A DNA stretch of 48,075 nt, counting the filler, from Jimgerdemannia flammicorona (lineage: Eukaryota), in the NCBI GenBank assembly GCA_003990765.1. It is 2 parts of 2 records of this genome, joined end to end, with 100 filler letters (N's around TTAATTAATTAA, not from the genome) between each part and the next. Parts side by side here need not be neighbours in the genome. Positions count along the whole stretch, not along the records: positions 1 to 23,988 come from RBNJ01001036.1; 1 more part is not named here. One strand, 5' to 3'. Numbering within the stretch: the stretch's first letter is position 1; each line of letters starts with the position of its first letter. The translations under genes and the position numbers were made by a program. Below, piece by piece: positions 193 through 44,234 of the stretch. Below the pieces are notes generated by a model. The model saw only the letters and a list, made by a program, of their open reading frames with translations. It had not been told where the DNA came from and made no database searches.

Positions 193-194
<2 letters not shown>

Positions 195-2466
195 AGAATA
201 TCTCAAACATATTCAAATAGTCCTGGAAATCCTGTAAAAACACAAGCTCTATACCAAGCTCAAGAAGTGTGAATTCTTCAAAGAGCAAGTTAAATACCTT
301 GGCCACATTATCTCTATACAAGGAATTCAAGTAGACCTATACAAGATAGAAGCAATTAAAGAATGTCCCATTCCATTGAATCTTACAGAACTCCAATCCT
401 TCCTTGGTCTAGCTAGCTATTATTACCACTTTGTCAGAAACTTCTCTGGCATTGCTGAGCCACTGACTAACCTCATGAGGAAGGCCCCACACTCAGACCA
501 CTATGTACCCTACATCTGAGACATCTTTTGTCAATAAGTCTTTTAAGAACTCAAGAACTACCTGATCCATGCTCCAGTCCTGTATAATGTAGATCAAAGT
601 CTAAAATTCATAGTCACTACTGATGTATCAAATTTTACTATTGGAGCAGTTCTGTCACAAGATGATGGCAAAGAATATCATCCTATTGCTTTTGAGTCTT
701 GCAAGTTGACCCCAGCTAAACAAAAGCTAGCCATCCATGAGAAGGAACTACTAGCAATAATATATATACTAGACCACTAGTAATGCTATCTAGAAGGTGT
801 TGAGTTTGATGTCATTCCTGATCATCAATCTCTCAAATACATCAACACCCAACCAACTCTGTCACATCTATAAGCCAAGTGGAGCCTCAAGCTTCAAACC
901 TTCAACTCAATGATCATCTACAAGTCTGGAAAGACACTTATAGTACCAGATACCTTATTAAGATACCCTGACCTCATTACAATCATACAGGTCACCTTAG
1001 TATCAGAATTTCTAGACCAAATCAGACAAGCTTATAAAGAAGATATAGTTGCTACTAGAGTTTCTCAAATGAGCTTAAGGATATATATACTGTTAAGAAC
1101 AATCTGATCTATCATCAAGACCAAGTCTACCTATCTAAAAACATTAACCTATACTATAAGATTTTGTAAGAATACTATAACTCTCCTCTTGCCAGTTACC
1201 TGGAAATTGAGAAGACTGTTAAGAACATCTAATACTACTACTATTAGCCAAGTATGGTCAAGAAAATCAAGAACTATATTGCCAGCTGTGATCTATACCA
1301 GTACAATAAGTCTACCAACCAAGTGCCTGCTAGTTTGCTACAACTACTGCTAATTCCTACTAAGAAATTTGAGCAAGTTACTATGAACTTTATACATAAC
1401 TCAACTGCTATGAACTCAATCTGGTGCTGATGCTATCATCATATTTGTTGACTATCTGATTAAGATTATAGTTACTGAACTAACCACTACCAATACTACT
1501 GCACCTGAGATTGCAAGAATCTTCTTCAAGTCCATCTTCTATCACTATGGCCTACCACAAGTAATTATCAGTAATTATGATCCCAAGTTCACCAGTCACT
1601 TCTGGCAATCTCTCTTCAAGACTCTGGGAACCCAATTGGCTATATCTACTGCTTTTTATCTACAAACTAATGGACAAACTGAGTGCATGAACAGAACTCT
1701 AGAACAAATGCTTAGAAACTATGTTTCTTATGAACAAGATGATTGGGATCACTACTTGACTTATGTAGAGTTTGTATATAACAATGCTGTCCAATCATCT
1801 ACTGGTCTTTCTCCTTTCTGGTTACTCCATGGTCAAGATCCTGAGACCCCTGCAAGTCTATTCTCTTTCAAGAAAAGCAGTCAAATAAAAGTCTCTACCA
1901 TCAAGAGCCTTACAGACAAAATAAATGAACTACTCAAGATTGCTACCATAAATCTTCAGAAGGCTCAATAGTATCAAGCCAAGTATGCTGATAAGAAATA
2001 CCATGATGTCACTTATACTATTAGAGATTAAGTCCTACTACATATCTACTGAGAACCTCAAGATATAATCTCAAGTCAATCACCCTTCAAACAAGTTCCA
2101 ACTCAAGTATATTGGACCTTTCAAGATCACTGAACAAGTCTCTGCATCCTTCTACCACCTCAAGCTATCTAAAACCATAAGAGTATATCCAGTCTTTTAT
2201 ATATCATACCTTAAGATCTGGAACCAGTCACCATCCTACCCTGGTCAAATTCCTAAGCCATCTGCCCCTGTGATTATGAAAGACCATATTGAGTATAAAG
2301 CTGAGAAAATCCTTGATAAATGAGTCCACTACCACCATCTTGAATACCTAGTTAAGTAGATAGGTTACCCTAAATATGATGCTATCTGGGAACCACTGAT
2401 TAATGTCAAGAATGCTCAAGATCTAGTTCAAGACTTTGAGGCAAAATGTATTACCCAATCCCTGTA
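193..2466 (+). pseudogene. Decayed Ty3/Gypsy (chromovirus) pol: RT C-terminus, RNase H, integrase, chromodomain
   Basis: Manual translation: KLKKCEFFKEQVKYLGHII (RT), TTDVSNFTIGAVLSQ and HEKELLAII (RNase H), integrase core ISTAFYLQTNGQTECMNRTLEQMLRNY (ORF 1636-1971), chromodomain EYKAEKILDK..YLVK*IGYPKYDAIWEP at ~2291-2450. Many stops and frameshifts. Confidence 0.93.
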
Positions 2467-2849
2467 GTGACTTCCTTAAATTGTTGATGATATATGGTAA
2501 TGACTAGTGCCTTATGTATCAGAAGTTTACTTTGGGACTCTGGAACCAGCAAAATATTTAATAAATAAGAAGTCCACTGAAATGAAGCTACTAGCTGAGT
2601 TTGAACCTCTCTCAGTTAGTTAGTCTGATAATAAGCTCTCTGCCTTATATGAGGATGAACAATCTCTTTTTTTTTTTTTTTTTTTTTTTTATAGTCACTT
2701 GGACTCCTTTCTTTATTAATACACCCATCTATCCTCTATAAAATACACTGTACCCACCCCTATCTGATCCCCCTAGGGCCCCCCCACTCTCTCTCAATAA
2801 AAGACCACCTGCCCACCACTCTATTTACAGATCCCTTCTACCAGATGAC

Positions 2850-5800
2850 AATGTCACCCACCCTGGGGACCCAACTAACCTACCACTCTGTCAGCAAATC
2901 TTCTATCAACCCCTCTCATCTTAACAACTTCTCCTGTATACTCATCTGTTATCCCTCCTCAAAAACAAAGAGCTGGTGTTCAGCCAGCCCTACCCATACA
3001 GCTAAAACCCACCCTATCATAAGCCATCCATTGTCCACACCACCCACTAACTGAGATTTCAAATCCTCCCAGTGATCTCTCTCTCCATCTGATCTCTTCT
3101 TCACATCTAGCCAGTCCCCTACTGCTATCCAAAAGTCCCCCATAACCTTACACTCTCCCAGCCAATATTCTGGCATCTATTCAAATCCCCCAACTTGCCC
3201 CACATTGTAGCACTCCTCACAATCTAATTGTCTACCCTCTACCAGATACCCAGCATGGAAATTCAACATGACATTTCTCCATAGTATCTGCCACCATACC
3301 ACCCAGAACTTGAGAGGAAGCCACCTCTATACCTCAGTACTCCATAACCAGACTCCTGCCCAGTCCCACTCTTTACCAATCCTCACAGTCTGCCAACTAC
3401 TTGGCCAAAGATCCTGACCAAGTCTCTGCTGACACTCCACTCTATTACTAATACTAAACTTAGCAAGTGAAACACCCCCTAGAAGCAGTCTGTCCTACTG
3501 CTGGACCCCACAGCATCTTCTCCTCATTGCTTTGCTAGTACAGACCTATTCAGTATGCTCTATCTATCACTCTCTACCAGAAGCCCTTATACTGAAGTTG
3601 TCAGCTCCCATCCAGATCCACTAGAGATAGCAAATCTCTTGAAGACTCTTGTGGAGAGAATCTCATCTCCTACACCTTCTGTATCAGTGGCACCCAATCT
3701 CCTCCCTACAGTTCAACAGCTCTTTTTAACCACCAAGCTCACAGGCAATACAGTCTTTTAGGAAAATCTACTAGGCCTAGTCCTCTCTAAACCACCAGTG
3801 TTGCAAGAGTGTCCCAACTGATCTGAGACCACCTCCCTGCCCAAATATAATCTCTAGCCAGTTTCATCAGTCTCTTCACCACCTAAGCTGGAAAGTCCAA
3901 ATGATAAGCAACATACTATAGCTTGGGGAACTAGTAGACATTCAGGATTGATACCTGGCCAGCTAGAGAGATGTGGCGATCTCTCTACCCTCTAAGAGCC
4001 TCCCCCCAAATGGCCACTCTCCTCTCCCACCATACTTGTGGTAAGACAGAACTATATATAGAAAGAAAGATACCCAGATACTACACTGCCTCTCCTGTAG
4101 GGACAATTGTTTCAATGATATCCCCTCCCACTAGTCTGTTTCTCAGCATCATTGTCTCACACTTATACCAGTTAAGTTTCACTCTAGAGTATGCCTTATA
4201 CCATTCCACTGCCTCCTTAAGTACCTCAAAATCCACTACTGAGCCAAGTCCAACCACCATATCATCTGCAAAGGCCCCCACCTTCTACACCACACTATAT
4301 ATAGAAAGCCCTGCCACCTTCTGTCATATCCTATCTATTAAAGATTCTAATAAAAGGGCATAAAGAATAGAAGACAGTGGATCTTCCTGAGAAACTCTTC
4401 TTCTCAAAGGAAATGCCAGACCCTGGTAATCATTACACATCAGTACTGCCCTACTGCCCACCAACAAACTCAATATAGAAGCTCAAAATCATGAAGGAAT
4501 ACCAATTCTATCCAGTACCTTGCCCAGCCACACCTGCCAAACTCAGTCATAGGCCTTCTCCTGGTTCAAAAAGACCAGTCTTCCATCCAATCTACAAGCC
4601 CATGCCCCTTCAATGATGCCATAAACCCAGGCTGTTCCATTTCTGATAAGCCTGTCTTCCATAAAGTCCCACTGCTCCTCACCCAGCACCTGTTGGGCAA
4701 TCTTCTGTAGTTTTGCAACAATCACCTTAGTCACCATCTTCCTGTCTATATCCAGAAGCATAATTGGCCTCCAGTTCTTCTAGTCCTCCCTCCTCCTCTT
4801 GTCTTTGTATAACAATGCCATCAACCCCAAGTCCTGCTCTCCAACCCACTCACTCTTCAGAAGAACATGGTCACAGAGGGCTGCTATCTCTCCTAACACT
4901 TCAGAGACCTTTGCCATCTTCTTCCAAAAGTCCCAAGGTAATCCATTCTCTCCTAGTGTTGTTCCAAGCTTAGTTGCTACAAGGACTCTCTGGATTTCCT
5001 CCTCCTGGACTGGTAGGACCAAGTCACCAAGGCCCTCTACTTGTGGCAGTTCCCAATCCTCCAGCATATCTCCAATCACCTCTTCATCTACACCCCCTTC
5101 CTCCTTACTCCACAAGCTCCTCTACCTCTCCTTCAGTATCCCAAGATCTGTTATATACTATACACTATTTCCCCTTCAGCACCAAGGACCCCATTCCATC
5201 AATGTCACACTCTCCTAGCCTAGAGGAGTCTTGATAAGTGCCAAGTAGGCCTCTCTCTCTCCTCAAGCCCCTGCTACCTCAGCCTAGCTGCCATTCCTTT
5301 CATATATATCTCCTTCTCCTCTCTCAGTACCTGTTGTAGCTTTACTATCTTCAATTTTGCACACTCCAACCTCCAATCACCCACCTCTTCAGAAGATATC
5401 AAATCTGCCCATTCCATCTATAATCTAATCAACTGATTTGAAGCATACCTTACTCTTTTCCTTCACTATCTCCCAGTATCCCTACCCACTCCTTCTCAAT
5501 AAACCCTCACAGCCTCTTTCAACTTCATCTACCAGATATCCACTGATGAACCCTCATGTATCCAGCTGGCAATCTTTACCTGGATGTCCTCAATCCACAG
5601 ATTCCACAATACTTTCTCAGCCAGCAGAGAGGAGTTAAGGTGACAATGTCTGGGTCTGTCCCCACTCTCTACAAACTGCCCCTATCCCAATAGCCCCCAG
5701 TGATAAGACTACAGGCACCACTCTACCTCCAGAGTCTTCCAGACATCTATGCCCCAGTATTCAGCTATCAGAATCCAGTCAATCCTCATACTCAGTCTAT

Positions 5801-6375
5801 TCACTCAGTGTGTATAGACCCTCTTTTCTCCCCACTGTGATCTGCCTATATCTCCTAAGGAGCAAAGGGTCTCCACCTCCTCCCAAGTATCCAGACTACC
5901 ACTCCTCCCACCCACACTCCTCCCTCCATCAGTTCTATCCAACTTAAGATTCCCCACTATATTAAAGTCACCTCCCAGAATATCTACTCCTTCCTCTAAG
6001 AGAATGCCCTCCTCCAAAAGATCTCTAATCCATACAATCTACTTACCCCTAGCTGTAGGGCAGTAGTAAGAGCCTACTCTCACTGGCTCTCACTCAGGTT
6101 GATGCCATTCTCCCTAGACCAAACAGTTCCCCCAGCTCCTAATTCCACCCAAATCTCCTCTACCTCTCTTCACCAGAATCACCACTTTGCTAATTCAAGC
6201 TATAGCTTCTCTCCATTCTCTAGTTCACTCTGCCTGATTCTCTTCATCCTCACACTATACATTCTGCAGTAGAAAGAGATCAGCCTCCAATTCTTTAAGC
6301 TAAGTAAAAATGTTCTTATGCCACCCAGATCCCCTTAACTCATTTACATTTAGAGAGAAAATATTAATTGTACTG
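2850..6375 (-). pseudogene. LINE-A ORF2: AP endonuclease, reverse transcriptase and C-terminal Cys-rich region (boundaries approximate)
   Basis: APE motifs SLNVNEL, ILGGDFN (5805-6017) and RIDWIL; RT motifs WRPIMLLDIDRK, FLNQEKAYD (4543-4761), QEDPLSSILYAL and GAFADDMVV (4081-4281). Confidence 0.9.
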
Positions 6376-6411
6376 TTTATAAAGAATAATGTTAATTATC
6401 AAGCCCATCCT

Positions 6412-8350
6412 CTACAAATCTGCATTCAACCTCTCCTGCACCAAGTCCAAGTTACATTCAGTAGCCAGTTCCTCCTCTTTAGCTATCTTTGCCTCCAGCC
6501 CAACCAGAAGCTTAGCCATCTCCCCATCCTCTTTTTCCTCAAAGTCCTCATGATACTCCAGGCATGCCTCCTGCCAGAGTTGCAAACCATGTCTCTCTGC
6601 CCAACAGTAGGCAGCCAACTCACCAGCAACAACTGCCAGCTCAGCCTTCCTCTTCTCATCAACCTCATATCTCTCCTTCTTCAGAAAAATAGCAAATATC
6701 TCCACCTTCAATATTTCTACTACTCCATCTTTATGCAGAATCTGCACTCAATACTTCTCACTCATTACTCTCAGGTCCACTTCCCCCAACTCCTCAGCTG
6801 CAAGATTATCCATCACTTGGCTCATCTACAGCAGGTTTCCCACCTTCTTCTCTCTTGGCATCCCTGGCCTTCCCACATCTAGTATCATGGTATCTACCTC
6901 TACACTTGCAGTCTTATTCTACCCCTCCTCTGGGACATTCATCAGCTCATCCTCACCTACCACCACTACCTGTCCTCCTTTTGCCATGCCAGGAACTCCA
7001 AAGTGTACTCACTGAGTACCCTGTATCAGCTCATCCTCAGCTACCTGACCCCTTACAGTAGGGCCTTACCTGACTAGAGGAGGAGTGTCTTCCAAGACTG
7101 GCTCTCAGATCTTGAATGTACCATTAGCAAATGGGTCTTTGTGCATTATCTTCTCAGCCCCATCCAGGCCCTCCTCTGTATCTCCTCCTCCCTTACTAGT
7201 CCAAACACTTACCTCTACACTTCCAGACTTCTCAGTGCTCTCAGAATTCATCTTCACCCCTCCTTCCATGCTTACTAGTAGCTCTCTCTACCTCTTGTAC
7301 CCTTGAGCTCTCTCCCACTGCCTCTTGTTAGTGCAAATATATTTCCCATCTACAATCTCCAAATGTATTGACTATATATACAACTTCCAGGCCTTTGCCC
7401 TCTGCTCTACTGCTCTACTTATCTCCTCTAGAGTCTCTAACAAGTTTTCCTCCTTCTCTTCACTCTCTTTCACTCTCAATATCTTACAGATGAAAGCCCC
7501 CCACATTATCACCAAAGGTCAGTCACTTGTCTTCCCCATAGCCTCTCTCCCAGTTAGTCTAATCCTGATGTCCACATCTCCTATCCTGAAAGTAGTCCCC
7601 TCCCATATCTGGAAACCAATATTGATCATGTTGCCATACTCTGCCATCACCTCCTCCACCCTTCTCCTAGTCTCAACCTTCATCACCACAGGCACCCCCT
7701 TTACTAGTAACTGAACCACCCTAGGGTTCTACCTCAAACACCATACCATAGAGACCACCACCTTGCCAACAGCCACTCCAGATTTTAATACTTCCTCTAG
7801 TAGACCCATCTCCTCAAAATCCACTTCAACTTCCTTCAGTCTCTTCAAGAACTTCACTGAGGCAGCCCTAGCCACCTACTCTATGATAATCCCCAGAACC
7901 ATTCTTGCCATCACAGCTAAGCCCTGAAAGCATAAGGTTGCTACAAACTCCAAGATTGACTTCTTGAGTAATGGTGCCACTGCCAGTCCTGTCACACTAT
8001 CAGCCAGGTCTTCCTTTCACTTTGGGCCCATCTGCACAGCCTCTCTATCAATAGTCACATCTGGATTTTTTTTCCAGATTCCCAGTCATACCACCATCAG
8101 CAGTCCTACCTCTACTCCCATCAGCTACTCCACCAGCCCTTCTTCCTGCCAGCTGAGATCCAGCACCTCCAACTCCTTCTTCCTTCTGCTTCCTCTTCCC
8201 TCTTGTCTGCCCACTATGAGCTCCTACTGACCAATCTCCAGCCTTCAGCATATCTATAAAACTTCTTCCCTTCTGCTCTCTGACCCCTCTACCAGTGCTG
8301 CTTCCACTGCCCAAGCTGCCCTGCCCACTTAGACCACTGAAAGACCCCAT
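6412..8350 (-). pseudogene. LINE-A ORF1 (gag-like, RRM-like core)
   Basis: ORF fragments 8048-8350, 7519-7719 (VQLLVKGVP..VMAEYGNMINIGFQIWEGT) and 6412-6747 lie upstream of ORF2. Homologous to the ORF1 of the LINE at 10547-15420. Confidence 0.7.
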
Positions 8351-8655
8351 CTTAAGCCCATACCCTCATCTGACATATTGCTAGTTGAAGGCCCCAGGTC
8401 TACCCAACCTGGTACACATGTCTGCTTGCTTGTTAATTGCTATAACCTTAGTATCTTTCTCCAATAAATGGGTCAAAAGTATATTTTGAAGTTTGTGTTA
8501 TATGAGTGGTAGTGGAGAAAGATGCTGTCCTACTCTGGAGGATAGACAATCTCCACCAATACACTAATACAAGTTTGAGAAATTTTGATTAAGTATATCT
8601 AGTCTGGTGTTACCTAAGAACTCAATAAGAATGTTAATTCTTAAAGAGAGAGAGA

Positions 8656-9118
8656 TATAACAATTTTGCAGTTATGTTTAGTCTTAGTACATTTTTACAT
8701 CTTTTTAGTTAGTCTTTTCTTGTCATTTCTTGAATATTCTACTATGTTCTGCCACCTTCTACTTACTTAGAAACCTTTTCTCAGTGCCCAGACACCACTA
8801 GAACACTCTTGTCTTTTCTTGATACTAAGTATCTTATCATAGCTAAATAGAACTTCTTAGAACATTATAGAACTATATTAGTCAGCTTTGCCAAGAACCT
8901 ATTTCTTGGCATTTCTCTTTCTTTCCAAGATCCTTCCAGATCTTTCTTTGAGATAATGTATAAATATCCTTATTCTCTATCTGAATAAAGCTCAGAATAT
9001 TTTCTCTCAGAAATCCTTCAAGAACACTTGAACCTCTAAGTATCTCTTTGAGCTACTTTAGGCCAACCAGAACTTCCAGATTTAGCCACTTTCTCTTAAA
9101 GAAACTAGAACTGTTACA
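8656..9118 (+). repeat. 3' LTR (~460 bp) of the chromovirus whose pol is at 193-2466
   Basis: Preceded by a polypurine tract AAAGAGAGAGAGA (8643-8655); termini TATAAC (decayed TGTAAC)..GTTACA; contains TATAAATA and AATAAA; homologous to 37710-38164. Confidence 0.8.
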
Positions 9119-10300
9119 GATAGTATCTATCAGATATAATCCACTTAGTAGCTACTGCTCTTACTACAGGGGGTGAGATATAGTCTAGAAATCCTGAGTG
9201 ACTATAGTAGTAGATTTTTAGATCCTAGTGGTTCCAAGATAGTATAATGTACCTGGCTCAATGGAGGCAAATTACAAGGTTGGAGATTGATATAGTTTAG
9301 CTTGAGCCCTCAGTTCCTTTGTCAAAAGCAATAAAATGTTCTTGGTGTTCAGTAGTATAATGATCAAAGCTGGATATCTGTAAGTGATTTGGGTATCAAT
9401 TTTCTAATTAAGATGGTTCTCTGGATATAGTGGTGATTTGGATGTAGCATGGTCTGACAATTTAACAGCTTTCCTTCTTGAGTAGTGAGTGATTTCTCTG
9501 TGTAGCATGATGATCTTAGCATAATGATCTTGGTTCCAAAAGTATGTAATTTCTGTATAATGATCTTTGTATAGTATGACAATCTCTATATAGTATGGTG
9601 GATTCCTTATGCAGGATGATCTTAGTAATATTCTTTATATAGATTTGGTGGATAACTTGATTTGGTACAGATTCTCCTAAATTGGCAGACTTCTTGAATG
9701 TTATAGATTCTTCTATACTAGGCTTACTAGGAATAGAAGATGGTGCAGGTTTTTCCTGAATCAGCAGCTTACTGGAAATAATACTGACAGTGGGTTCTCT
9801 AAATTGGGCTTACTGGGAATAAACTAATAATTCAGATATCATAAATTCTTAGCAAGTTATATTAAAGACTGGCTTTATTTATATGGAGTCATATTGTAGA
9901 CTAACTCTACTATAAAGTTGCATCAATAGACTGGCTTTGGTGATAAGATTTCTATAAGTTCTTTGAGAATGCAGATAACTTGAAATGGTGGCAAAGCTCT
10001 TTCTTAAACTTTGGTGGCAAACTTAGATTCTTCAGACTTATCTGACAAGTGAACCAAAAATATAACAAACTCTTCTTTGTATTAAAAAGTGGACTAGAGT
10101 AGAAAGGAATGCTTTGCTCAAAATCTCCTAGCAGTGACTGTAGAGTTCCTCTCAAAGTATAGTAGGCAGACTTGACTTTTGCTTTGGATTCAATTTAGAC
10201 TAAGGTTTATTCACTCTTATCTCTGGGGTATTTTATACAGTTATAGTTGCTACTGGTTACTATGTTACTAACTATAGATTGCTATCTATAGCAAATATTC

Positions 10301-10372
10301 CTTGAGGGTATAGTGTACCTTGAGAGTATGGTATACCTTAAGAGTACAGTATATCTTGAGAGTACAGGTAAA
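10301..10372. repeat. 18-bp tandem repeat, about 4 units
   Basis: CTTGAGGGTATAGTGTAC / CTTGAGAGTATGGTATAC / CTTAAGAGTACAGTATAT / CTTGAGAGTACAGGTAAA. Confidence 0.8.
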
Positions 10373-10546
10373 CAGAGACTTCTTTTGCTCAAACCACTCA
10401 GAGTAAGCTAAGCTACATAGACATCTTTCAGTGAAAGACAATATGTTTTCAAGTTTTTATTTTGATTATACTGATGTATATCATATGGTGGGAGTTTATC
10501 TACAAGACACATCAAGTTTCAGCAAAAACCATCAAGTTTTGGTGAA

Positions 10547-13500
10547 ATGGCTAGTTAAGGTTTCTCTAGCTCTGAGTATCTAGAGAGGAGGAGGCCTGGT
10601 CTGGGCCTTCTTAAGAGCTTTGCAGCTGCTGCAGAGACTGATGTGGCTGCTGGAGGGACTGGTGGTCAGGGGAGATCTGGTGAAATTGAGGCCTGGTGTA
10701 CTGTGGTGAGAAGCAGGAGGACTGCAGCCAGGCCCTTGGAGGTGAGACAGGGGGGGGTGTAGTGTTGACAGGAGGAGGGGTCAGGTGATAGATCAGGTGA
10801 TGGGTCAGGTGTCTGGCAGGAGGCAGGGGGTCTGGTGGTGTGATGTTGGGAACTGGTTCTTCTAGGGCTGGGCCAGTAACTGGGGAGAGGGCTGCTGGTG
10901 ATACAGTGATAGCTGGTGAGGCAACTGCTGATATTTCTGGGATCAAGAAGAAGGTAACTCTGGTAGCTGGGATAAGTGAGCTGGTGGTAAAGCACTTCTT
11001 TCATAAGTCAGTATCAACATGGGCAGTTTTGGTGAACTTCCTGAGATTGGCAATATCAGCTAGGGAGGTTCTGAGACTGGTGGGGGAGAAAGTGGCTGGG
11101 GCTGAATCCTTGAAGTTCATCTCTTTGGTAGAGGCAGTGGAAATTGGATTTGTGGAGGAGGACACAATGATTAAGGCACTAGAGAAAGGACTGACTGTCA
11201 AGAGTGTCCAAATTGAGATAGTGAGGTGTTTGAGGTAGGACCTGCATACTGTTCAGCTGGTAGTAGAGGGGCTGCTAACTCTGGGCAGACAGAAGACCAA
11301 GAAGATGGTGGTAGAGGTACTGAGTAGCTATGGTGAGATAGTGGATTTTGGGTTCATATTCTGGGAGGGTACCAAATTGAGGTATGGTAACTGTGAGATG
11401 ATGCTGTAACTAGAAGGCAAGGAGGCAACTGGGCTGAGATGAGATTGGCCTGAGGGGATTTGAGTTAGAGGGCAAGAGTGCAAGGTGTGGAGGAGGAAAG
11501 GAGTAGAACAGAAGGAGAAAGAGTTGGCAATTACTCTAGAGGAGAGAGAGGCTGCAAAGAAGTTGCATAAGAGGAAGTGGGAAGAGTTTACCAAGGATTG
11601 GGTCTAGATTCAGGCAGATGGCAAGCAGAAGAGATAGAGGAAAGAGAATTGGGAGCATCTGCAGGCAGCCCTTTAGAGGGCAGTAGTGGAAGAGAAGGTG
11701 AGAGTAAAGGTGGCCAAGAATCAGATAGAAGGAGTGGAAGCAGCAGAGGTGTCCTTCTCTTAGCTGGGTGGTATGGAGAGCTCAGCATATATACCAGTGA
11801 GAGAGAAGTGGGCAGATAAGGAGGAGGTGGGAGAAGGGGGCTTTGAGGATGATATCAAAGTGATGCCAGAGACTCAGGTAAAGGACACCCATATGGCTAG
11901 AGTGGCAAATGTCCATTGGGAGTACTCTGAGGCTAGTGAGGTAGTATATTTGGAGAAAGTTGCAGAGGAGGATGAGCTGGTGGATGTGGCTTCAGATGTG
12001 TCAGCAGATAGAGAGCAACTGCAAGAGTTGAGTAGGACCCCCAGGTTATTGACTCCAGGGCCCCTGGTAATGACAGCAGAGAGCTGGTATCAGGCAGTAC
12101 TTGAGGAACTTGCAGAGAAGGACATCAAGGAAGTGGATGTATTTCATGGATCTCTGGAGGCATGGGAAGGATTTCTCAATATTGTAATATAGAGGCCTAA
12201 GTTGGTGATAGCAATAGTAGCAGCTTTCTAGATGATAAAGGATATAATGTTGATGAGAGCAGGATAGTAGACATCAGAAAGGTGGCAGCAGAAAGAGTGG
12301 ACCTTTTCTGTAGTAGTATAAATAGTAATTGAATCTGAAGGGCAATTTGCAAAGACTAGCAAGAGATCATTAGAGGAAGGGCCAAGAATATGGTGGCAGT
12401 TCCAGCAGAGCTTTAAACAATTTCTTTGATGATGATGAACAGTTTATATATCTTATCAATCAATATTAATGGATTGCATGATGGTATTAAGAGATAGAGG
12501 CTGTTTTTATGGCTTAAAGTCAGAAGATATGATATTATTTTTCTTCAGGATATTTGGGCTTATGGGGAGTAAGACTATGAGATATGGAGTAAAGAATAGT
12601 ATGGTAGTATGGGTTGGAACAAGTAGATGGACATCTTGGTTGGTATAGGCAAAGGTGAGCTGGTGGAGGTAAAGGCCTATAGTGACAGATTGGTATGGGG
12701 AAGACTAAAAGGAGGGGCTGGTGATGGTTTAGCAGTGGGCTTGGTTTATCTCCCTATAGTTAGCAGAGAGCAAAAGCAATGGGTTGAGAACTGGTGGGCT
12801 TGGGAAGGTCAGGAGGTAGTTGCACTAGACATTCTGGGGAAGGACTTTAATATGGTATGAAATTGGACACTGGATAGGTCAGATAGTGGGGCAGGTATAG
12901 TAGTATCCTCTGGACTGTCTTGATGGCTTCAGGTGGAGTGTGATATGAGACTGGTGGATAGTATCCATCAGTATCAGGTAGATGAGTCAGGACCTTTCAC
13001 CTAGTGGCACCCAGTTGGTAATGGATTAGTTGGAACATGAATTGATTGAGTGCTAGTAGTGGAGTATTGGGGCAAATTCTGGATATTGCAGAGGTATGTT
13101 GGTGCCCTTGGTCAGATTATTGGGGAGTGGAGGTATGTGGTAGATTCCAGACAGCAGGCTGTAGTGGAGAGTACTGGTGCCTCAATATGGCTTTTCTCAG
13201 GAGGAAGAAAGAGAGAGAACAGTTTGTGGACATTGTGAGACAGAAAGTAGTATGTTGGCAGAGTGATGGGCAGCTGATAGTGGAGTAGTGGGGTAAATTC
13301 AAACATTTGGCTGGTACTTACTGGCAGGATGTTGGAGAAGTGGCTGGGAAGGAGCAGAAGGACAAGGAAAGGAGGGTAGAGAAGGGGCTGCAATAGTGAT
13401 TGAAGCTAATGAAAGGGGGAAACTTATCTGGAGAGATATGCCACTAGCTGGCTGTGGAGGTGGCAGAGTTGTAGGCAGATTTGAAGGCAGCTGAGGACAG

Positions 13501-15420
13501 AACAGTAGATGGCCTGCTAGCCAGACTAAGAGCTAGGCAGTTGGAGGAAGGAGAGAGACCAACTAAATATCTGTCTGGCATTTTGAAGGCCAGAAAGATT
13601 TGATACAGCTGGGCCTCAGTATTGTATGAAGATAGAGTAGAGGTCTCTGAGATTACCAATATGTTGGGAAAGGTCTCAGAACAATAGCAGGCTCTCTGAT
13701 AGGATAGAAGAGAGTATGCTGAGAATGTGGTGCTTTGGAAGAATGATGACAATATGGTGAACAATTGGCCAATGATAGTAATACCTGAGATAGAGGGGGT
13801 AGTGATGAATGAGGTGTCTTTGGATGAAGTTTTGGATGGAGATATTGAGAAAGACATAGTCTGGCTCATCACCTGGAGAGAATGGGTTGCCCTAGAAATT
13901 CTGGAAGGAGTTTCAGACAGAGTTTGGTAGCTGATTGGTAGAGATGATCAACTCTATTCTAAAGGAGGGCAGCTGGATTGGCAATGACTTCTTGAGATTA
14001 GTTTCCCTACTATATAAGGAAAAAGGTGATCAGTGGGTGTGGCAGAATTGGCAACCCATTATACTGCTGAATGTAGATAGAAAGCTGATCTCAAAGATTC
14101 TAGTAGAGAGGATGCAGCAGTATATTGGCATACTGGTGGGTGAGGAGTAGTGAGGTTTTGTCAAGAGAAGATAGATTAGAGATAGTATGACTTAGATGCA
14201 GAATGTCTTAGAAGGCTATAGGAGCTGGCAAGTAGATGGTAGGATGGTCTTTCTGAACCAAGAGAAAGCCTATAACAGAGTACAGTGGAATTACTTAAAG
14301 ACTATTCTAAGGAGGATGAGATTTGATATAGTAAAAGTAAGATAATTGATGAGCTTAGTATGGGGATACAGAGCAGCAGTTATGATGAATGGTTAGAGTG
14401 GCCCAGAGTTTTCTTTGGGACAAGGTATGCTATAGGGAGACCCTCTCTTTCTCCTCCTTTATATACTCTCTCTAGAGCCATTGCTGGTATGGCTAAAGGG
14501 GCAGCTTTCTGAACTATAGATGGGTGATATGGTCTGGAAGCTAAGTGCCTTCACAGATGACATGGTGGTAGAGTTGAGTAGTATGGAGGATGTAGACCTC
14601 TTATAGGAAGAGATTGGATAGTATGAGAGACTAGCAGGAGCTAAGCTGAATTAGGCAAGTATGAGACAATAGAACTTAGTGCTGGCCTGGGAGAATATGG
14701 ATAATTTGGACAATTGGTAGCCATTGAGAGTACTGTTTGGTATCTAAGTATTTGGTTCTCAGTATATGAGACAGTCCTGCCAAAGGAGTGGTGGAGTGGT
14801 ATGATTCAGAAGTTAGAAGGCACCTTGACTGGCTGGTCTGGAAGGAGTTTCTCCTTGATTGGCAGAATTGTGATCTTGAATATATATTGATTGCCCAAAT
14901 TGTGGTATCTAGGGTATCACTTGGATTTTCCAGGGTGGGTAGTGTAGCAGCTGAAGAAGATTGTAAAAGGCTGGTTAGATATTGAAAGCAGCCACAGGTT
15001 GGGTGAGATATATTGGTAATATAGACAACTGATGGTGGCCTGGAGTTGGTGGACTTCAGGTGATGGCTAAAAGTACTTAGAGGCTAGTAGGGGTACTGGC
15101 TGGCTGAACTAAGTGAGGGGGGCTGGGGCAGGCTGGCTATGGACAATTGAGAGGTTTGGTTCTACTCTCATGATGAGGTTTGGAAGAATATGTGGGGTCT
15201 GCTTCAGGTTAGAAATGTCTATTGATTATGGTATAAGGGGTTTTGGTGGGATATAGTAGAGACCTGGCTGGTCATGGGGTTGGTAGGGCTAGAGATAGAG
15301 GTTGGTGAGAACTCTGAGCAGAGATGATGATAATTGAGAGATCTCTATATTGGTGACTATAGTCTGAAGGAGTACTTACTGATTGAGGCAATAAAGTAGA
15401 TCAGGTCTGACTCTCTGGAG
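10547..15420 (+). mobile_element. Decayed, 3'-truncated L1/Tx1-type LINE (LINE-B): ORF1 ~10547-12430, ORF2 ~12430-15420
   Basis: ORF2 starts MMMNSLYILSININGL (APE); ILGKDFN; RT motifs WQPIILLNVDRKLISKIL, FLNQEKAYNRV, GDPLFLLLY and AFTDDMVV; ORF1 RRM-like EVLSSYGEIVDFGFIFWEGT. No poly(A) or TSD seen. Confidence 0.88.
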
Positions 15421-16689
15421 AGAGCTAATAGAAGTCAAAATAAATTCAGAGTAGATGAGTAAAGAACTATATACAAGATCTCCTCAAAAGGACTAATATA
15501 TAGTCTAAGGCTTAAAAAAGCTCTACTCTTATTCTCTGAATCTATAAGCCTTGATTATATTACTATATTAGCTCTTGATTTCAGTTGGATACTACTAAAT
15601 AAAGAAGGTTCCACTTTCTAAACTTGTAGGCCTTGATCATATTACTGCATCAGCTTCTGGTTCTAGTTGGGTACAGTCAGAATGCTAGTCTTTATATGAT
15701 TCTACTCTCTGCCAGCTAATTAAAAAGTCTTACTGAGATAATACCTACCTTAACTCTGATAACTATTCCCAGTCTAATACTCTATTAATCTATTATTATT
15801 ACTCTTCTATCTATCTATAATAACTATTTCCTCTCTTATCCCAACTCTATCCAAAAAGAGATTATCTATATTAGAACTATATTTATTAAAAAGCTTACCA
15901 AAACTTAGAGAATTTTACTATAGATACTGAGAACCTATAGATAACCTATACTAGTACTTGATGTCCAAGGTCAGCTAACTCTATATGTAGTCTGTGATAT
16001 ATCAAATGACATTTTGTTAATAACAACAAAAGGAAGAAGATACTATATCAAAATAAGTATACTTTAGATACAGGCAAAGATATTAGAAACTATAAAAAAG
16101 TAGAGAAGATATCAATTCAATACTATTACCTCTCTCTTACTATACTTTTACAAATATAGCAAATCAATTCAAGATAGAGAAGATAATAATAGAGAAAAGA
16201 AAACTTAAAAAATTATCTACTAAACTTTATAACTAGTAAAATAACAAAAAAAGAGACCTCAGAAAACTTCACTATTATTACTTTAGAAATAAAAAATAAC
16301 CAACTAGAATAAAAACTAAAAACTCTATAATATGTATAAGAGAAAAGATAGCTAAGTTTCTTTAAAATAATTCAGAGAAAAAGAAAAATATTTTAAAAGT
16401 TACAAGTAAACCAATAGTGAAAATAAATCAAAACTAATTTCCAAGTAACATTAATATTTACTTTGTCTGATTTTATTATAGCATACCCCATATCACCTTT
16501 CAACTTATCTACTTAAAGAAGTTCTTTGCTATAATTCTGACTCCTGTTCTTGAGATATAAACATCTTGCTAAATTGTAACAAATGACCACCACTCACAAT
16601 ATTCTTTGGAACTTTTTTCTTTGAAAGAAAAACATAAAAAAACTCAGTTCCATAAGAAGTAACTTACTATAGTAACCATTAACATACTA

Positions 16690-17184
16690 ATTTATACAAG
16701 CAGTTGTATGCTGGCTATCCATACGGAATCAGCCATGTCTCTGAAGCCCCTATGGCTAAAGAGATTGTCCTGAACTCGAACTGCTATACAATGCAGTATT
16801 CATGCCAGTAAGATAAGAAAGAACTCTAACCACTCACCATACTTTTACAAAGTTGAGTTGCTGACTTCAGCGCAGTTGCAACAAAAGATGGCGAGTTCTT
16901 GCACCGATCTATGATCGTATCTAGTAATTTCTTGAAACGGAGGTACCACCTATTCTGTCTGTCATGAACGAGAAAGTTTCCTGTCATCCTTCTTGTTCAG
17001 CCATGACAAAAGGTCAACTTCTTTCCACTCATCCGGCTTCTTTTCTATGACGTACTCCATGAACTCTGCAAACACAGATATAGAGAGCGACAAGAGTTAG
17101 GAAGATTCTGACTCTCCACGAACAACGTAAACCTTTACCTACCAAAAGGTTTTCTGAGAATAACTCTTTTGCAAGGTTTGCCAT
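16690..17184 (-). pseudogene. Spliced gene relic of unknown function (frameshifted, decays into the TE zone)
   Basis: ATG at 17184 (MANLAKELFSENLLV), GT..AG introns near 17138-17066 and 16837-16784, exon FMEYVIEKKPDEWKEVDLLSWLNKK, then a frameshift to NRWYLRFKKLLDTII. CpG is retained. Confidence 0.45.
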
Positions 17185-17232
17185 CGTGCGGTGCGTTTTT
17201 TGTCAGGTGACGCCACCATATGAGCCACATCA

Positions 17233-17270
17233 CATGTTCACTTTGTCTGGTTTTGTTGCAGCACGCCCCA
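17233..17270. repeat. ~38-bp dispersed direct repeat (copies at ~16454-16490, 17233-17270 and ~23788-23821)
   Basis: CATGTTCACTTTGTCTGGTTTTGTTGCAGCACGCCCCA vs ATATTTACTTTGTCTGATTTTATTATAGCATACCCCA vs ATATTCACTTTTAGTTTTGTTGCAGCATGC. Confidence 0.75.
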
Positions 17271-17774
17271 AATATTCTTAATAATTTAAACTAGCTATTA
17301 ATTTAAATCATTTGAGTTTTCCGGTGGAGCTGCCTATATAGGACTCGTACTACTTGGGCCACCCAATTTTTTGATCCCATAACAACTCTACTCATAGACG
17401 GTGAACCACTTTCATTCCCGAATTGGAGTATCACCAATATCCCAAACGTCGGCCGGATCATTCATGGATACGTTCATTCCACCGAATGTACAAACGAGAT
17501 TGGGTGTTTTATCCGATCTCCTTTGCTTGCCAAACTCAGGCGGCGTTTAGACTGATCGTGATATCATAGTACGCTGAGAGAGCATCCTCATTTCATCATG
17601 TAGGGTAGAACCTTTCCAGTGTCTCCAATCGTTCACTACATCTTGCTAACAAACATGATATATATTTTTTTTTTTTTTTGGACCCTGTCCAATCATCGCA
17701 CGATCACAAACAAGCCACCCAATTTTCTTAACATTCCGGCTTTCCCTTCATCGCGAACCACTCACCATAACATT

Positions 17775-20003
17775 ATGAGCAAGTCCCTTGCTGACAAGCT
17801 GGCGGAGATGGATTCATCCGCTCCCGCAGGTGTTTTATCATTCGGCTGTCCACTGAAGTTCCTCTTTTATCTTCGTTGCAACCTCTAAGCGAACCGTTAC
17901 TTACCACCTTCGCAGACTTCGACCCTGAAGACTTCGGTGAGTCAGTCTTTAACGATATGCCCGACCGTGACTCTGGAGGCTCGGACGACGAGGCGCTGGA
18001 TAACTCTGTAGCAGCACGAGAGCACTATATACAAGTGGGCAAGAGCGCAATCCGGAGAAAGCAGCAATTCTTAATGGACGATCCGAAATATTCAGGCAAG
18101 CGGAGCAGCAGGCAGGCAATTTTCGATCAAGGAGAAGACGATGAAGTAAAGGAGGGGCAGGGGCAAGAGGAAGATGAATTCAGGGAGGAGGATGAGGGAA
18201 GCGAGGATCACAACCTGTCTGAAGGTGATGGTACGGAAGATGACGAATTCCGCCGCAATGGCAACGATGAGAATACTTTCGAGGAGCCTGAAGCATTAAA
18301 AAATGAGTTGGCGAAAATTGAGGAAGAAGAAAGGTAGGCAAGACACAACGTATCCAAGGTGGTTGATATGACTCCGGTATATTCATACCTGTTATTTTTG
18401 TTATTTCACAGGATCTTAATCCGAAACATGTCGCAAAGCGCTAAGGCTGATGTTGAAAAAGGCCAACACGTGAAGACGCAGCTGGTCAGTTCACTTTTTT
18501 ACCGCTCACATTTGGATTGAATGTGACCATCGTAGCTGAAAAACGCCGCCCTTCCGGTGAAATTTGGCCATGGCAGGGTCTATGGGATACCTTTTTGGAC
18601 ACTCGTATCCGTATCCAGAAGGCAGTTGTGATTGCGAACCAGCTACCACAGGTGTGTTGTACTTCTTTATTTTCATTATCGTTTCTCCCTTCTCCGTCTT
18701 TAGGCAGGATTCACAAGCCGTCTAAGGCATGTGTGCTCACTACTTTGGATACCACATTGTTTAGTGGGACACCATGCCAGTTTTTTTGACGCAGAATGAT
18801 AGGGCCACCTCGGTACTAGATGACGCCAAATCAGAGTTACGCGGGCTCATTGATTCAATACTTGACGTACGGGTGGTAGGACTCGTTTTACATTTACTTA
18901 CCGACAGTTCTTGAGGTTTTCTAAGACAATGCTTTACTCATCGCATGGCACTGTACGTACTCAAAAGGGATTATGCCACGACAACGATGTCATTGTGCTG
19001 CCCAAGGGCGCCGCGACAAGTCGAAAGCGCCACTTTAATAATGATGACGAATACATTGATCACCTTTGGCAAGATATCCGGGAATTGGACGATATGTGAG
19101 TTCTTTCCTTGTCTGGATATATCGGGTTCATCTTCAAAACTGTTTCCATCGCAAATGGGCATATATATTTATCTTTTCTACGTTACATTTACACCAATAG
19201 ATTCTTGCCATATCGGAATCAAACGGTCGAGAAATGGGGCAATAAGATGCAAATTGCATCCGGCATTCCACTGAACAAGAAATTCAAAGCGTTTGATCAG
19301 GTTGGCAGTACCTACTACTGAATTTCCTGTTTTACGAGGTGAATAAATACCGATTGGTTGCTACTATTGAAAATCGCCGGGGAACAATCGGGGATCGCAA
19401 TAGGCCCAATATACTTCGGATCTTCCATATCGAATCCAAAGACTAATAGTTGAGCCACCCTCCATTGATTTACGGTCAACCATTCTGTCGTTTTATTGGC
19501 CAATGCTCGTTTTTAGAGCATTCTGACACAAATGAATAGCATACTCGCCGATAGGGAGCGGTTGGTCAAAAGAACCCAGCTGAAACGTTCAGAGTTCAGA
19601 TCATTGGGCAAGGTAAACCACCTTTTGTGTGTATGTGCGGGGTCTGGCTGGAGTGGAATGCATGACTTTTCTGTCGAGTTTAGTGCTCCATATCTTTCTT
19701 ACCGGTTCTGTAACCCGTCATAGCTCGTAACAGATCCCAGCAATGCTATCGCCGTTGACCCTCCAACAGACTACCATCTTACACACCATGACCCCGAAAT
19801 CTTCGACGATACCGATTTCTATGGCCAACTACTACGTGAGCTGATCGAGTCGCGCATGGTGGACGCGACAGATGATCCAGCGGCCGCTGGGTTGCGCTGG
19901 GCAGCCTTGAAGCAGAGCAAACAACGAAAAAAGATAGTAGACACGAAAGCGAGTAAAGGAAGGAGATTACGGTAAGTGATGCTCAATCCGAAGGTTTGTG
20001 AGC

Positions 20004-20046
<43 letters not shown>

Positions 20047-20381
20047 CTCGACTACGCTGATTGCTCAAGTGAAAAGCTGAATCATGTAGTCTATCCTATA
20101 TTAGCTACGAATTCAGTAATGTTAATAATGTTATCTCCTTATTATATGTTTATTATATATACTTCCTATGCAGATACCACGTTCATGAAAAGTTGCAAAA
20201 TTTCATGGCCCCGGTACCCGCCGGTACTTGGCATGAGGAAATGACGGATGAGCTATACGCGTCACTGCTGGGTAAGTCAGGCCGTTCGATGGATGAGGGG
20301 AGCAAGGATGAGGCGGAGGAAGAAACAAAGTCGATGGACGTGAATGGAGCGGCAATTGATGGATTGCGGATTTTCGGTTAA
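17775..20381 (+). CDS. BFR2: Protein BFR2/AATF (Che-1), SSU processome factor; 10 exons
   Basis: Exons joined at GT-AG give [50 protein letters not shown], an acidic tract, [28 protein letters not shown] (AATF-Che1 domain), [18 protein letters not shown] and [25 protein letters not shown] (TRAUB domain). Stop TAA at 20379-20381. Confidence 0.93.
20007..20043. repeat. (TA)n microsatellite in the last BFR2 intron
   Basis: Perfect TA run. Confidence 0.9.
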
Positions 20382-20805
20382 CATATTGTTAGTAGAGGTT
20401 TTATGGTTACTATTGAATGATGCATTTTATTTTCGTGGACGGTAATAACCAGTGTCATCATATGAAGTAATGATGATTGACTGGGAATGTATACACATCA
20501 TAAACTTGATTTCGACCACACCGTTGCATGTAACTGTCCTTGGATTTGTTTACTAAATATTTACAGTTGTGGTTTTGTGAGTCAAAGAGTTTAACTACAG
20601 GACAATGATGGCAATGAACACCGATTTCCAAATTATACGTCTTCAGCATCGTCATCACCGTATTCAACGCTGACCAACGATGTTAACGAAAATGATGGTT
20701 GGTGATGAAAATCTATGAGGTGTAAAAGAGTGTAAGCGACATTGCATCGCGATTATCCATCATAAGAGCACACATAAAAATTCATGCGAGTTCAAAGATG
20801 AGATT

Positions 20806-22438
20806 CTAACCCTTGCTTTTGTTGACTCCGTCTTTGTCCACTATGTCCGTGCGTGGGTTTGTAACTCGTGTCTTTGCCAATGCTTTCGTCTCGGCTTTCT
20901 CCTTCACCCTCACCAAACCCACCAAACCGCCTGCTGCATCCGCTGCCACATTTCCCGTGTCGCCATCCCGAACCGCCTGAGCAACACGACCGAACCCAAC
21001 AGTAGACAGAAACGGATCGATCTTCAATTTAGTGTGCACGGTAGCCAAGACCCCCAGCTCCTTGACAACCGAACGCGGAGTAGTGCCGCTGCGCACGTCG
21101 TCTAATGGTCCACTGGTACGTCGTCGCTTTTTGTCCTGGTTGAAGATGGACGAAGCGGCGATCTCGAGCTTGCGTTTTTCGGCTTGTTCGAGGACATGGT
21201 CTATAGTCGAACGCACGGGTAAAATTAGAAAAGTCAACGGTGAGTTTCTACGGAAGGAGTTGATATCATGGCATTCAATTTAAACTATAAGTGCGTGGTG
21301 TATGGCCACGTCAAAGTTTTCTCTTATCGATAATACTGCCCACCTGCAAATTCCGTCGTCTTAGCCTTGATTTCATCCTCCTCCGATTTCGGCAACAATG
21401 GTATATGTAGTGAATTCCTGTCTCTGATCTCCTCGGCTACGCGCTCTTCCATCTTGGCCAGCATCTTGTCTTCTCTGAATTTTTTCCTGAGTTTCTGAGA
21501 TAACGCGTATGGGTCAGACCACTGTGTTTCGTTGAGCCGTTGCAGACGAGTGAGTGCGGGTAATGCTTCTTCGCGCTTTTTCTCGTCGGTAACGGTGTGT
21601 TCGAGACGGTAAAAGGCGTCGGCAGCGAGCTTTTCAGCGGTCTCTTCGTCTAAGAGCACGATGCAAGGGAGTCGACGGTATTGATGACTGAATTATTCAA
21701 TCGAGCTGCAATGGTAAAAATGGCATCTTACTCATTGTCAACATACCTTTGAGCTTGATAACCTCGCTATCTTCTGGCTCCCATTCCTCTATTTTCTTAC
21801 GCGCCCCACTAATCACGAGATACTGAGTGGTCTGAAAGCGCCCATAAATACGAGCAAGTGATGTGGCAAGTTCCCGACGACGATTCAAACGTAAATTTTC
21901 GCCCGTGGCAATCGCCTTTATTCCAACTCAACCCGCAGCCTACATATCTATAAGAATCTGAAAACATAAAAGAATGTGTTACCTTCGGATCGGTGTGTAT
22001 CTCAATCCAGTTATCGCAGAGGTGGCATTTCATTCGAAACTGCCATATGGATGTGCTATGGTACATGCCAATTTTCTTTTTTTCGGCATTAAAGCGAACA
22101 CCTGCAGTCAAACAAACATTTAGTGTGCGATCTATTTTGTACCAAAAACAAACAGAAGAGTAAACATACCCATCGCTATATGTTCCCCGCAACCATCGCA
22201 CCAAATATTAAAAGGTAACTCGAATCTTTGGCGGGGAGCACACGAAAAACGTCTTGAGCACCCAGTAGCTTAGGGTAGCAAAGGTTAGGGCCAATAGTTC
22301 TCTGACGCACCTTAAGATGAGAATGCCTTTATCGATCTTGCGGGCCCGGCTACCCAGCGGGTGCTTTCCGACGAAAGAGTTGACGGTACCCTTGTCTGGA
22401 GTCCAGTCTGGGGGGTAGTACTTATTGAAGGGCTGCAT
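20806..22438 (-). CDS. YJU2B: Saf4/Yju2-family (DUF572) splicing factor, CCDC130/YJU2B-like; multi-exon
   Basis: MQPFNKYYPPDW..HPLGSRARKIDKGILILR-FELPFNIWCDGCGEHIAM-GVRFNAEKKKIGMYHSTSIWQFRMKCHLCDNWIEIHTDPK-TTQYLVISGARKK..DAFYRLEH..WSDPYALSQKLRKKFR. Two CxxC zinc pairs and canonical introns. Confidence 0.9.
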
Positions 22439-22623
22439 TGGATGTCGAAGTGGAGCAAGTGTAAGTACAAATGCGATTGTGTTCATACTCATCGCTGTAT
22501 CACATGACCAGGCAAACGTGATGTCATTCCGGCTATAACAATGAGAACATGTGATAAAAACACAAAAACACCGTCGGAAATCGTAGCGCATTACACGAAG
22601 AACTATCCTAAAGCCTCCTCTCG

Positions 22624-23672: not shown

Positions 23673-23988
23673 GGTCCTTTATGATCCATTTATTGCACCG
23701 AGCGTGTTTGAGCGTGTTTGAGCGGTAAAATAACTTTTATGTTCATTTTTCAGACATTATCATTGATACTATCAAGTGTGACACCAAATATTCACTTTTA
23801 GTTTTGTTGCAGCATGCTTTATATATAAACAAATTTAGCTTTTGAAGTTTAACTAAAACTAAAGTTTTATTTTTTAATAAATTAAGTTATATTTTTAATA
23901 AAAATTATATTTTAAAATAAAAATTATCTGTTTAGTTATATTCTCAGTTATAGACTAACAGATGAGTTATTTATATCGGATGGGGGGG

Positions 23989-24088
23989 NNNNNNNNNNNN
24001 NNNNNNNNNNNNNNNNNNNNNNNNNNNNNNNNTTAATTAATTAANNNNNNNNNNNNNNNNNNNNNNNNNNNNNNNNNNNNNNNNNNNN
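23989..24088. other. Assembly gap with artificial six-frame stop linker
   Basis: N44-TTAATTAATTAA-N44. Confidence 0.97.
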
Positions 24089-35480: not shown

Positions 35481-35484
35481 ATAT

Positions 35485-44229: not shown

Positions 44230-44234
44230 CTCTC

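Follow-up and report, generated by a model that had tools for sequence, protein, structure and literature searches.

We found that retroelements within a 48,075-nucleotide stretch of Jimgerdemannia flammicorona DNA (hereafter the window, along which all positions are counted) have lost almost all of their CpG dinucleotides through directional C>T mutation that took place after insertion, while the genes between them kept ordinary CpG. The loss is restricted to transposon tracts with sharp borders, affected both DNA strands, followed an order set by the base 3′ of the cytosine and ran well above the rate of a transversion clock. The explanation that we favour, and regard as probable rather than secure, is a RID-independent, methyltransferase-linked C>T conversion targeted to transposons or heterochromatin.

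Between 193 and 16720 there was a single CpG, at 3977, against 705.8 expected from base composition (observed/expected ratio, o/e, 0.001; Poisson log10 P ~-304), and 26393-47885 contained 10 against 613.4 expected (o/e 0.016; Poisson log10 P ~-245). The gene island at 16724-23750, by comparison, had 362 CpG against 348.8 expected (o/e 1.04), and the following segment, 23751-26392, had 59 (o/e 0.51). The counts agree with the original prediction, made by eye, that CpG is nearly absent from 193 to ~16720 and from 26393 to ~47885 and ordinary at 16724-23750. GpC was kept at an o/e of 0.82-0.88 in both erased tracts, so what was lost is CpG in particular, and GC content does not account for it. 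The borders are abrupt and can be placed to the nucleotide: on the left, a poly(A) run is followed at 193 by the erased tract, whose last base is 16723, the next CpG being at 16724; the right-hand tract stops at 47885, directly 5′ of CGCGGCG. In all 28 of the 250-bp windows across the gene island (starts 16751-23501) CpG o/e was at least 0.68 (range 0.68-1.51), indicating that introns and intergenic spacers are spared as well.

Most of the CpG-free DNA consists of recognisable transposons (Table 1), as expected if erasure is confined to repeats. That earlier claim is borne out for most of the CpG-free DNA but not for all of it: ~5.2 kb within the erased tracts have no recognisable transposon homology and contain 0 CpG against 151 expected. 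Next to the genes, a read-through search of 15000-16723 in all six frames matched no Pfam family. Two members of one Ty3/Gypsy family, which we call elements A (3′ part only) and B (full length), lie tail to tail with 271 bases between them (26399-26669). A is half decayed, with 58 CpG against 120.4 expected (o/e 0.48), and B has kept 6 of 314; the state of decay thus follows the element, not the neighbourhood.

At integration, an element has two identical long terminal repeats (LTRs). We aligned the LTR of element A with both LTRs of element B; of 1615 columns, 1330 were well aligned. Between the two B LTRs we counted 173 transitions against 11 transversions, giving a transition/transversion ratio (ts/tv) of 15.7 at a transversion divergence of 0.8%. 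The LTRs of a further element, C, differ by 108 transitions and 8 transversions over 998 columns (ts/tv 13.5), with 9 TG/CA double differences, and the internal parts of A and B by 95 transitions and 7 transversions over 742 columns; for young copies the ratio ranges from 13.5 to 16.8. Forty ancestral CpG could be inferred in the LTR trio, 24 of which are kept in A, none in the B 5′ LTR and one in the B 3′ LTR, so that 79 of 80 were lost from the B LTRs. The outcomes at these 40 sites in the two LTRs were TG/TG at 11, TG/CA at 6, CA/TG at 5, CA/CA at 2, TA-containing at 14 and other at 2. Such independent outcomes show that B was inserted with CpG, which was lost afterwards in each LTR separately; by arithmetic from the trio, its CpG o/e at insertion was at least ~0.5. 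The copy comparison from which the original prediction read the direction of change, in which 25794-25840 of A, CCGCCGAACGTG..GGCGATGACGTCATCCCGCGCGAC, aligns to CTGCCAAATGTG..AGTGATGATGTCATCCCATGTGAT in the 5′ LTR of the adjoining element, proved correct on alignment. At 28159 the B 3′ LTR reads GATCGGAG, in contrast to GATCAGAG in A and the 5′ LTR; here an A>G change made a new CpG, one of the few now present in B, that is still unerased. As to whether the process is still running, the half-decay of A and this unerased CpG point different ways.

When polarised by A as outgroup, 177 of the 184 differences between the B LTRs resolved into 141 C>T changes (strands collapsed), 28 T>C changes and 8 transversions; the 28 is a maximum, since a C>T change that also occurred in A would look like T>C. 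Both strands were mutated (C>T 90 times and G>A 51 times on the sense strand), at 0.248 C>T per C and 0.183 G>A per G (P 0.07). A runs test for strand clustering of C>T and G>A was not significant (P 0.22, 0.10); the two kinds of change are unclustered, and a few strand-coordinated bursts thus leave no trace. Contigs from two sequencing runs (X1 and X2), aligned to 24089-44088 at a likeness of at least 85%, differ from it at 586 and 321 positions, of which 540 and 287 are transitions. These runs perhaps come from the same material as the assembly, and we therefore regard the contigs as consistent with the pattern but do not treat them as independent evidence.

We noted that the rate of C>T strongly depended upon the base 3′ of the cytosine. 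C>T per lineage-site was 0.481 at CpG, 0.219 at CpA, 0.150 at CpC and 0.037 at CpT in the B pair, and 0.475, 0.177, 0.132 and 0.044, respectively, in the C pair, with a ceiling of the method at 0.5 for CpG. The order is the same in both: CpG, which is saturated, far above CpA, then CpC, and CpT far below. The effect of the 5′ base was small (0.107-0.181 overall; TpC 0.107-0.12), as it was for C>T at CpG in the B LTRs, where the counts are low (TCG 7, GCG 6, CCG 6, ACG 4). A 3′-neighbour rule is typical of DNA methyltransferase-type enzymes; APOBEC-type deaminases read the 5′ base. Composition agrees with the context order, surviving cytosines having accumulated as CpT/ApG (CpT o/e 1.45-1.88 and ApG o/e 1.43-1.72 in the erased tracts). 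In the AT-rich relics, CpA and TpG are down to an o/e of 0.71-0.81 and TpA is up to 1.09-1.17. The sense strand of the long interspersed nuclear elements (LINEs) is CpA-rich (o/e up to 1.56; 3001-8000, 11001-14000) and that of the LTR elements TpG-rich (up to 1.58; 27001-34000, 40001-43000); strand-biased deamination or original composition could both underlie this asymmetry by element type.

The non-CpG layer of mutation in the original prediction is real and larger than claimed, since 40 ancestral CpG stand against 173 transitions in the same 1330 columns. The CAG>TAG and TGG>TAG changes offered as evidence for it may also be second hits at former CpG sites. TA made up 14 of the 80 outcomes at former CpG, a fraction that matches the rate of CpA>TpA at sites that were CpA from the start (54/183, both lineages together), so that changes of the TGG>TAG type are second mutations within the slower, non-CpG layer. 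That the layers can be separated is shown by the LINEs, which have only 1 CpG of ~335 expected, yet a GC content of 45-46% and TpA/ApT of 0.93-0.96. A fast layer at CpG and a slower one at CpA and CpC thus arrange the elements into a series: A is half decayed, the LINEs, B and C are free of CpG, and the relics have become AT-rich, at 23-28% GC.

Transversions accumulated in the B LTRs at 11/(2 x 1330) = 0.0041 per site per lineage. Relative to them, arithmetic gives a C>T rate of ~500x at CpG, ~40-60x at CpA and ~7-11x at CpT, and a T>C rate of at most ~5x. In the mammalian germline the CpG-to-transversion ratio is a few tens, which makes slow, age-proportional decay of methylated CpG insufficient here. 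A spectrum explained by such decay in step with transversion age, which would have undone the original prediction, is contradicted by B LTRs stripped of CpG at 0.8% transversions. Neither is CpG the only context raised in proportion to age: CpA reached 0.18-0.22 and CpC 0.13-0.15, against 0.04 for CpT, and 15-22% of CpA cytosines turned to T per lineage at that same divergence. An old dispersed repeat common to both erased tracts (8640-9130 and 37690-38175; 76% identity) shows 75 transitions and 34 transversions (ts/tv 2.2). The drop in the ratio suggests a fast early phase, and extrapolation of the rates of B to this pair pointed to a slow-down; as this depends on the starting composition of the pair, we give it little weight.

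The host is not an ascomycete. Exon 21327-21692 of the YJU2-type gene in the island was 100% identical to a protein under the name Jimgerdemannia flammicorona at NCBI, the next being from Mortierella alpina (49-52%). The locus thus belongs to the Endogonales (Mucoromycota), an early-diverging lineage, the setting in which the original prediction held that strong repeat-directed mutagenesis would be notable; canonical repeat-induced point mutation (RIP) in an ascomycete, which it had allowed for, falls away. RID-1 is described as exclusive to Pezizomycotina, and DIM-2-like homologs are described in Endogonales and Glomeromycota (PMC9963178). For J. flammicorona AD002, Dataset S1 of that study lists three DIM2-class proteins (1187, 1038 and 1085 amino acids; BAH and C5-methyltransferase domains) and two HP1 proteins. 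Jimgerdemannia entries in this dataset pass from row 9055 to 9427-9440 and then to 10264, the first rows seen for DNMT1, DIM2 and DNMT5 being 9179, 9389 and 9546. Among occurrences 111-140 of 184, DIM2 is the only DNA methyltransferase class given for Jimgerdemannia, no search having been aimed at the RID-1 block. Taken together, the dependence on the 3′ neighbour and the DIM2-class proteins of the published table point to a methyltransferase-linked process without RID.

In such a process, inserted transposons would undergo directional C>T hypermutation in place, read out by the base 3′ of the cytosine. A fast layer would convert CpG essentially to completion, and a slower layer would later convert CpA and CpC, with CpT mostly spared. 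The most likely agents are DIM-2-class DNA methyltransferases, which would methylate cytosines of transposon chromatin; the modified cytosines would then become thymine, giving a RIP-like outcome without RID and under another context rule. We infer the enzyme, the methylated intermediate, the targeting through heterochromatin and the manner of deamination, spontaneous or enzyme-promoted, from the mutational pattern and the published enzyme table.

The pattern resembles RIP in Neurospora crassa and other Pezizomycotina in that C:G to T:A changes are directional, fall in repeats and on both strands, depend on the 3′ neighbour, spare nearby genes and have AT-rich relics as their end product, in which TpA/ApT is raised (here 1.11-1.18). 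It differs from RIP in that the host belongs to Mucoromycota, CpG and not CpA is the first target, and the published table lists no RID for the species, no search having been aimed at its RID-1 block. For the Gypsy fragment, both LINEs and elements B and C, the index (CpA+TpG)/(ApC+GpT) was 1.26-1.52, with no fall as in RIP; only the two AT-rich relics reached 0.93-0.95, with TpA/ApT at 1.11-1.18. Of the hallmarks of canonical RIP, then, directional transitions are present, and the CpA context and an Ascomycota host are not.

Among basidiomycetes, an excess of CpG transitions in transposons without RID has been described as a CpG/TpCpG pattern (Horns et al. 2012, PMC3318451; Amselem et al. 2015, PMC4352252), and its authors were likewise unable to separate a mutator from deamination of 5-methylcytosine (5mC). 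Unlike the TpCpG pattern of Pucciniomycotina, the one here has no preference for a 5′ T (the triplet counts above); erasure is near-complete (o/e 0.001-0.02), and CpA and CpC are raised as well. Horns et al. 2012, which covers basidiomycetes only, reports that the pattern was not seen outside Pucciniomycotina (PMC3318451). In Zymoseptoria tritici, Moller et al. 2021 (PMC8016269) describe Dim2-dependent C>T in transposons during mitosis, with >98% at CpA and methylated CpG spared. Shared with that system are C>T in transposons, targeting of CpA, a RID that is dispensable in principle and the implication of a DIM-2-class enzyme, here by inference; unlike in Zymoseptoria, CpG goes first and CpC is also mutated. 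In other Mucoromycota, methylation has been described: of transposon CpG in Rhizophagus (PMC8647823) and Gigaspora (PMC13443276), and of transposons in CG and CHH contexts in Phycomyces, which encodes DIM2 and DNMT1 (PMC11258239). The accounts given there describe no mutational footprint.

The alternatives differ in how far they can accommodate the young LTR pairs. Long-term dense CpG methylation with light non-CpG methylation, followed by ordinary spontaneous deamination of 5mC at an unraised per-site rate, would predict CpG as the main target, has a basis in the methylation of transposon CpG reported from relatives (PMC8647823, PMC13443276, PMC11258239), and sits well with the lack of significant strand-run clustering and with a decay series that appears continuous. 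B and C, however, are young by transversions (11/1330 and 8/998), yet B has lost 79 of 80 CpG from its LTRs; the mutated share of CpA cytosines, the CpG-to-transversion ratio of ~500 and the fall of ts/tv from 13.5-16.8 to 2.2 in the older repeat pair, suggestive of a fast early phase, likewise speak against it, and we consider such passive decay unlikely, although it is the strongest of the competitors. Somewhat less likely again is a homology-sensing, RIP-like process in which duplicates would be recognised, perhaps premeiotically in the zygospore, and mutated in bursts by a DIM-2-class paralogue. Neurospora DIM-2 is reportedly able to mediate RIP, and such a process would resemble that DIM-2 branch. 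Recognition of duplicates would also suit the three DIM2-class paralogues in the published table for J. flammicorona, the similar identity of both LTR pairs (86-89%), the collapse of ts/tv in the older pair, as a self-limiting process would yield, and the merely half-decayed state of A, a family member only ~270 bases from B. Decay nevertheless continues to 23-28% GC, well beyond recognisable likeness between copies; the 5.2 kb of CpG-free DNA have no detectable repeat partner; and strand-coordinated runs were not seen.

One could suppose that copies were already mutated when they integrated, an APOBEC-like deaminase having edited the cDNA or the reverse transcriptase having made errors, because every affected element is a retroelement and three of them carry a dUTPase, which limits uracil in cDNA. 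We regard this as very improbable: sister LTRs differ by 173 (B) and 108 (C) transitions and have independent TG/CA outcomes at former CpG, both strands are mutated, and the rate depends on the 3′ and not the 5′ base. The comparison of LTR pairs rules out editing of cDNA before integration. An artefact of assembly or sequencing, for which only the N gaps in the window would speak, is hardly credible, given that CpG is normal in genes of the same contig, that the pattern tracks element borders and that the X1 and X2 contigs hold the same families with transition-dominated differences.

Several points weigh against the methyltransferase-linked conversion that we prefer. All the evidence comes from a single window of 48 kb, in which two LTR pairs and one outgroup copy, A, could be compared, and the neutral spectrum outside transposons is bounded by composition only. 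The split between CpC and CpT depends on reconstruction of the neighbouring base, the value for CpC being 45/176 and copy-based counts being CC 39 and CT 27. What we call transposon-targeted could really be domain-wide, given the ~5.2 kb of CpG-free DNA that does not resemble repeats. The analogy with Zymoseptoria is incomplete, since Dim2 mutagenesis spares CpG there and CpG is the first target here. The list of enzymes was taken from a table published for isolate AD002, and the isolate of the window may differ; a 5mC intermediate on the mutated DNA is presumed from the pattern of mutation.

Table 1. Features of the window, with strand and supporting values.
Feature	Position	Strand	Details
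CpG-erased tract 1	193..16723	.	1 CpG, 706 expected
5′-truncated Ty3/Gypsy (reverse transcriptase tail, RNase H, Tf2-type SH3)	193..2320	+	GC 0.367; 0 CpG, 67.7 expected
LINE-like non-LTR retroelement	3934..8061	-	GC 0.459; 1 CpG, 171 expected
Second LINE-like element, diverged relative of the first	10801..14887	+	GC 0.448; 0 CpG, 163.7 expected
Unclassified AT-rich stretch adjoining genes	15084..16723	.	GC 0.31; 0 CpG, 39.6 expected; no Pfam family
Gene island, ordinary CpG	16724..23750	.	362 CpG, 348.8 expected
AATF/BFR2-type gene (exon open reading frames)	17795..20378	+	Pfam AATF-Che1 1.2e-7; TRAUB 2.7e-12, 1.3e-12
YJU2/CWC16-type splicing factor gene	20809..22672	-	Pfam Saf4_Yju2 1.2e-18, 8.5e-15
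Two N runs	23989..24088	.	23989-24032 and 24045-24088, 44 bases each, 12 bases between
Element A, 3′ part and LTR (~24892-26398), Gypsy family of B	24089..26398	+	GC 0.458
Element B, full Ty3/Gypsy with dUTPase, reverse transcriptase, RNase H	26670..35480	-	GC 0.380; 6 CpG, 314.4 expected
Element B 3′ LTR	26675..28226	-	86% identity to 33921-35480
Element B 5′ LTR	33921..35480	-	86% identity to 26675-28226; aligned with element A LTR
Copia-like relic	35481..38300	+	GC 0.231; 0 CpG, 37.4 expected; RVT_2 sub-threshold
Element C, LTR element with dUTPase	38302..43723	+	GC 0.376; 4 CpG, 184 expected; dUTPase 5.3e-17
Element C LTRs	38302-39280 and 42746-43723	+	89% identity between LTRs
Extreme Ty3/Gypsy relic with dUTPase	43750..47885	-	GC 0.281; 0 CpG, 81.3 expected
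Return of CpG at window end	47886..48075	.	5 CpG per 190 bases, GC 0.53

The element assignments of Table 1 come from the following matches. In the truncated Gypsy fragment, Pfam RT_RNaseH_2 was matched at 547-777 (1.4e-23) and SH3_Tf2-1 at 2069-2320 (2.6e-11), and 196-483 aligned to the reverse transcriptase of element B by tblastn. The first LINE was identified from a weak, sub-cutoff match to RVT_1 (2.1e-4) at 4546-4779 and from collinear protein homology to the second, plus-strand LINE (30-47% identity by tblastn). By blastn, element A is 81% identical to 29012-27136 and 80% to 35480-34382, and element B gave Pfam matches to dUTPase (9.3e-19), RVT_1 (2e-13) and RT_RNaseH (4.7e-22). The label of the Copia-like relic, which the original prediction singled out for extreme decay, stands on a sub-threshold RVT_2 match at ~35.5 kb (1.1e-5; 25.6 bits, where the cutoff is 31.6); the AT-rich relic at 43750-47885 is instead a Ty3/Gypsy element with a dUTPase (Pfam 2.5e-16 in a read-through frame; tblastn matches to the B and C dUTPases), and a read-through Pfam scan of the plus strand of 43750-47888 found no family.

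Poly(A) runs at 1-31 (31 bases) and 128-192 (65 bases) bracket a short G-rich piece with 2 CpG, which immediately precedes the truncated Gypsy fragment. Element A begins directly after the N runs and lacks its 5′ part, so that no age can be taken from an LTR pair of its own. Its LTR contains a 201-amino-acid open frame (25052-25654, +) with no Pfam family, and counterparts in the B LTRs (27474-28076, 34720-35274) have 71-74% protein identity; a metagenome scan with this frame returned one weak locus (L001; 47% over 30 residues), which we did not use, and a 26-base LTR word had 0 matches in metagenome scans. The uracil-limiting dUTPase is found in three Ty3/Gypsy-type elements, at 31041-31604 (-), 41491-41841 (+) and 46433-46720 (-); a host that destroys cytosines thus contains dUTPase-bearing retroelements.

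Repeat-directed C>T hypermutation is usually treated as a trait of Dikarya, chiefly of ascomycetes. RIP signatures are said to be undetected in Gigaspora and Mucoromycotina (PMC8647823, citing Venice et al. 2020), Gigaspora margarita is described as being without RIP (PMC7082362), and a kingdom-wide screen from 2025 presents RIP-like signatures as unique to ascomycetes (PMC12543289). That screen scored k-mers enriched >2-fold in repeats, and its main text does not mention CpG; loss of CpG would therefore escape it. Our literature search, which did not take in the genome paper (Chang et al. 2019) or the study of Venice et al. 2020, found no report of such a pattern in Endogonales or Mucoromycota. 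The Endogonales locus thus combines near-total erasure of CpG with strong post-insertion C>T outside CpG in a group for which the papers cited here report no RIP. It is conceivable, and we put it forward tentatively, that the expanded DIM-2-class methyltransferases of Endogonales act as a mutator independent of RID, with a context rule of its own, that methyltransferase-driven hypermutation is older than the split between Mucoromycota and Dikarya, and that RID-based RIP is a later specialisation of ascomycetes. The locus opens the question of whether DIM-2-type enzymes mutate by themselves, and of how old that function is. With a host genome of 240 Mb, of which >77% is repeats (PMC10386755), such a defence did not stop massive genome expansion.

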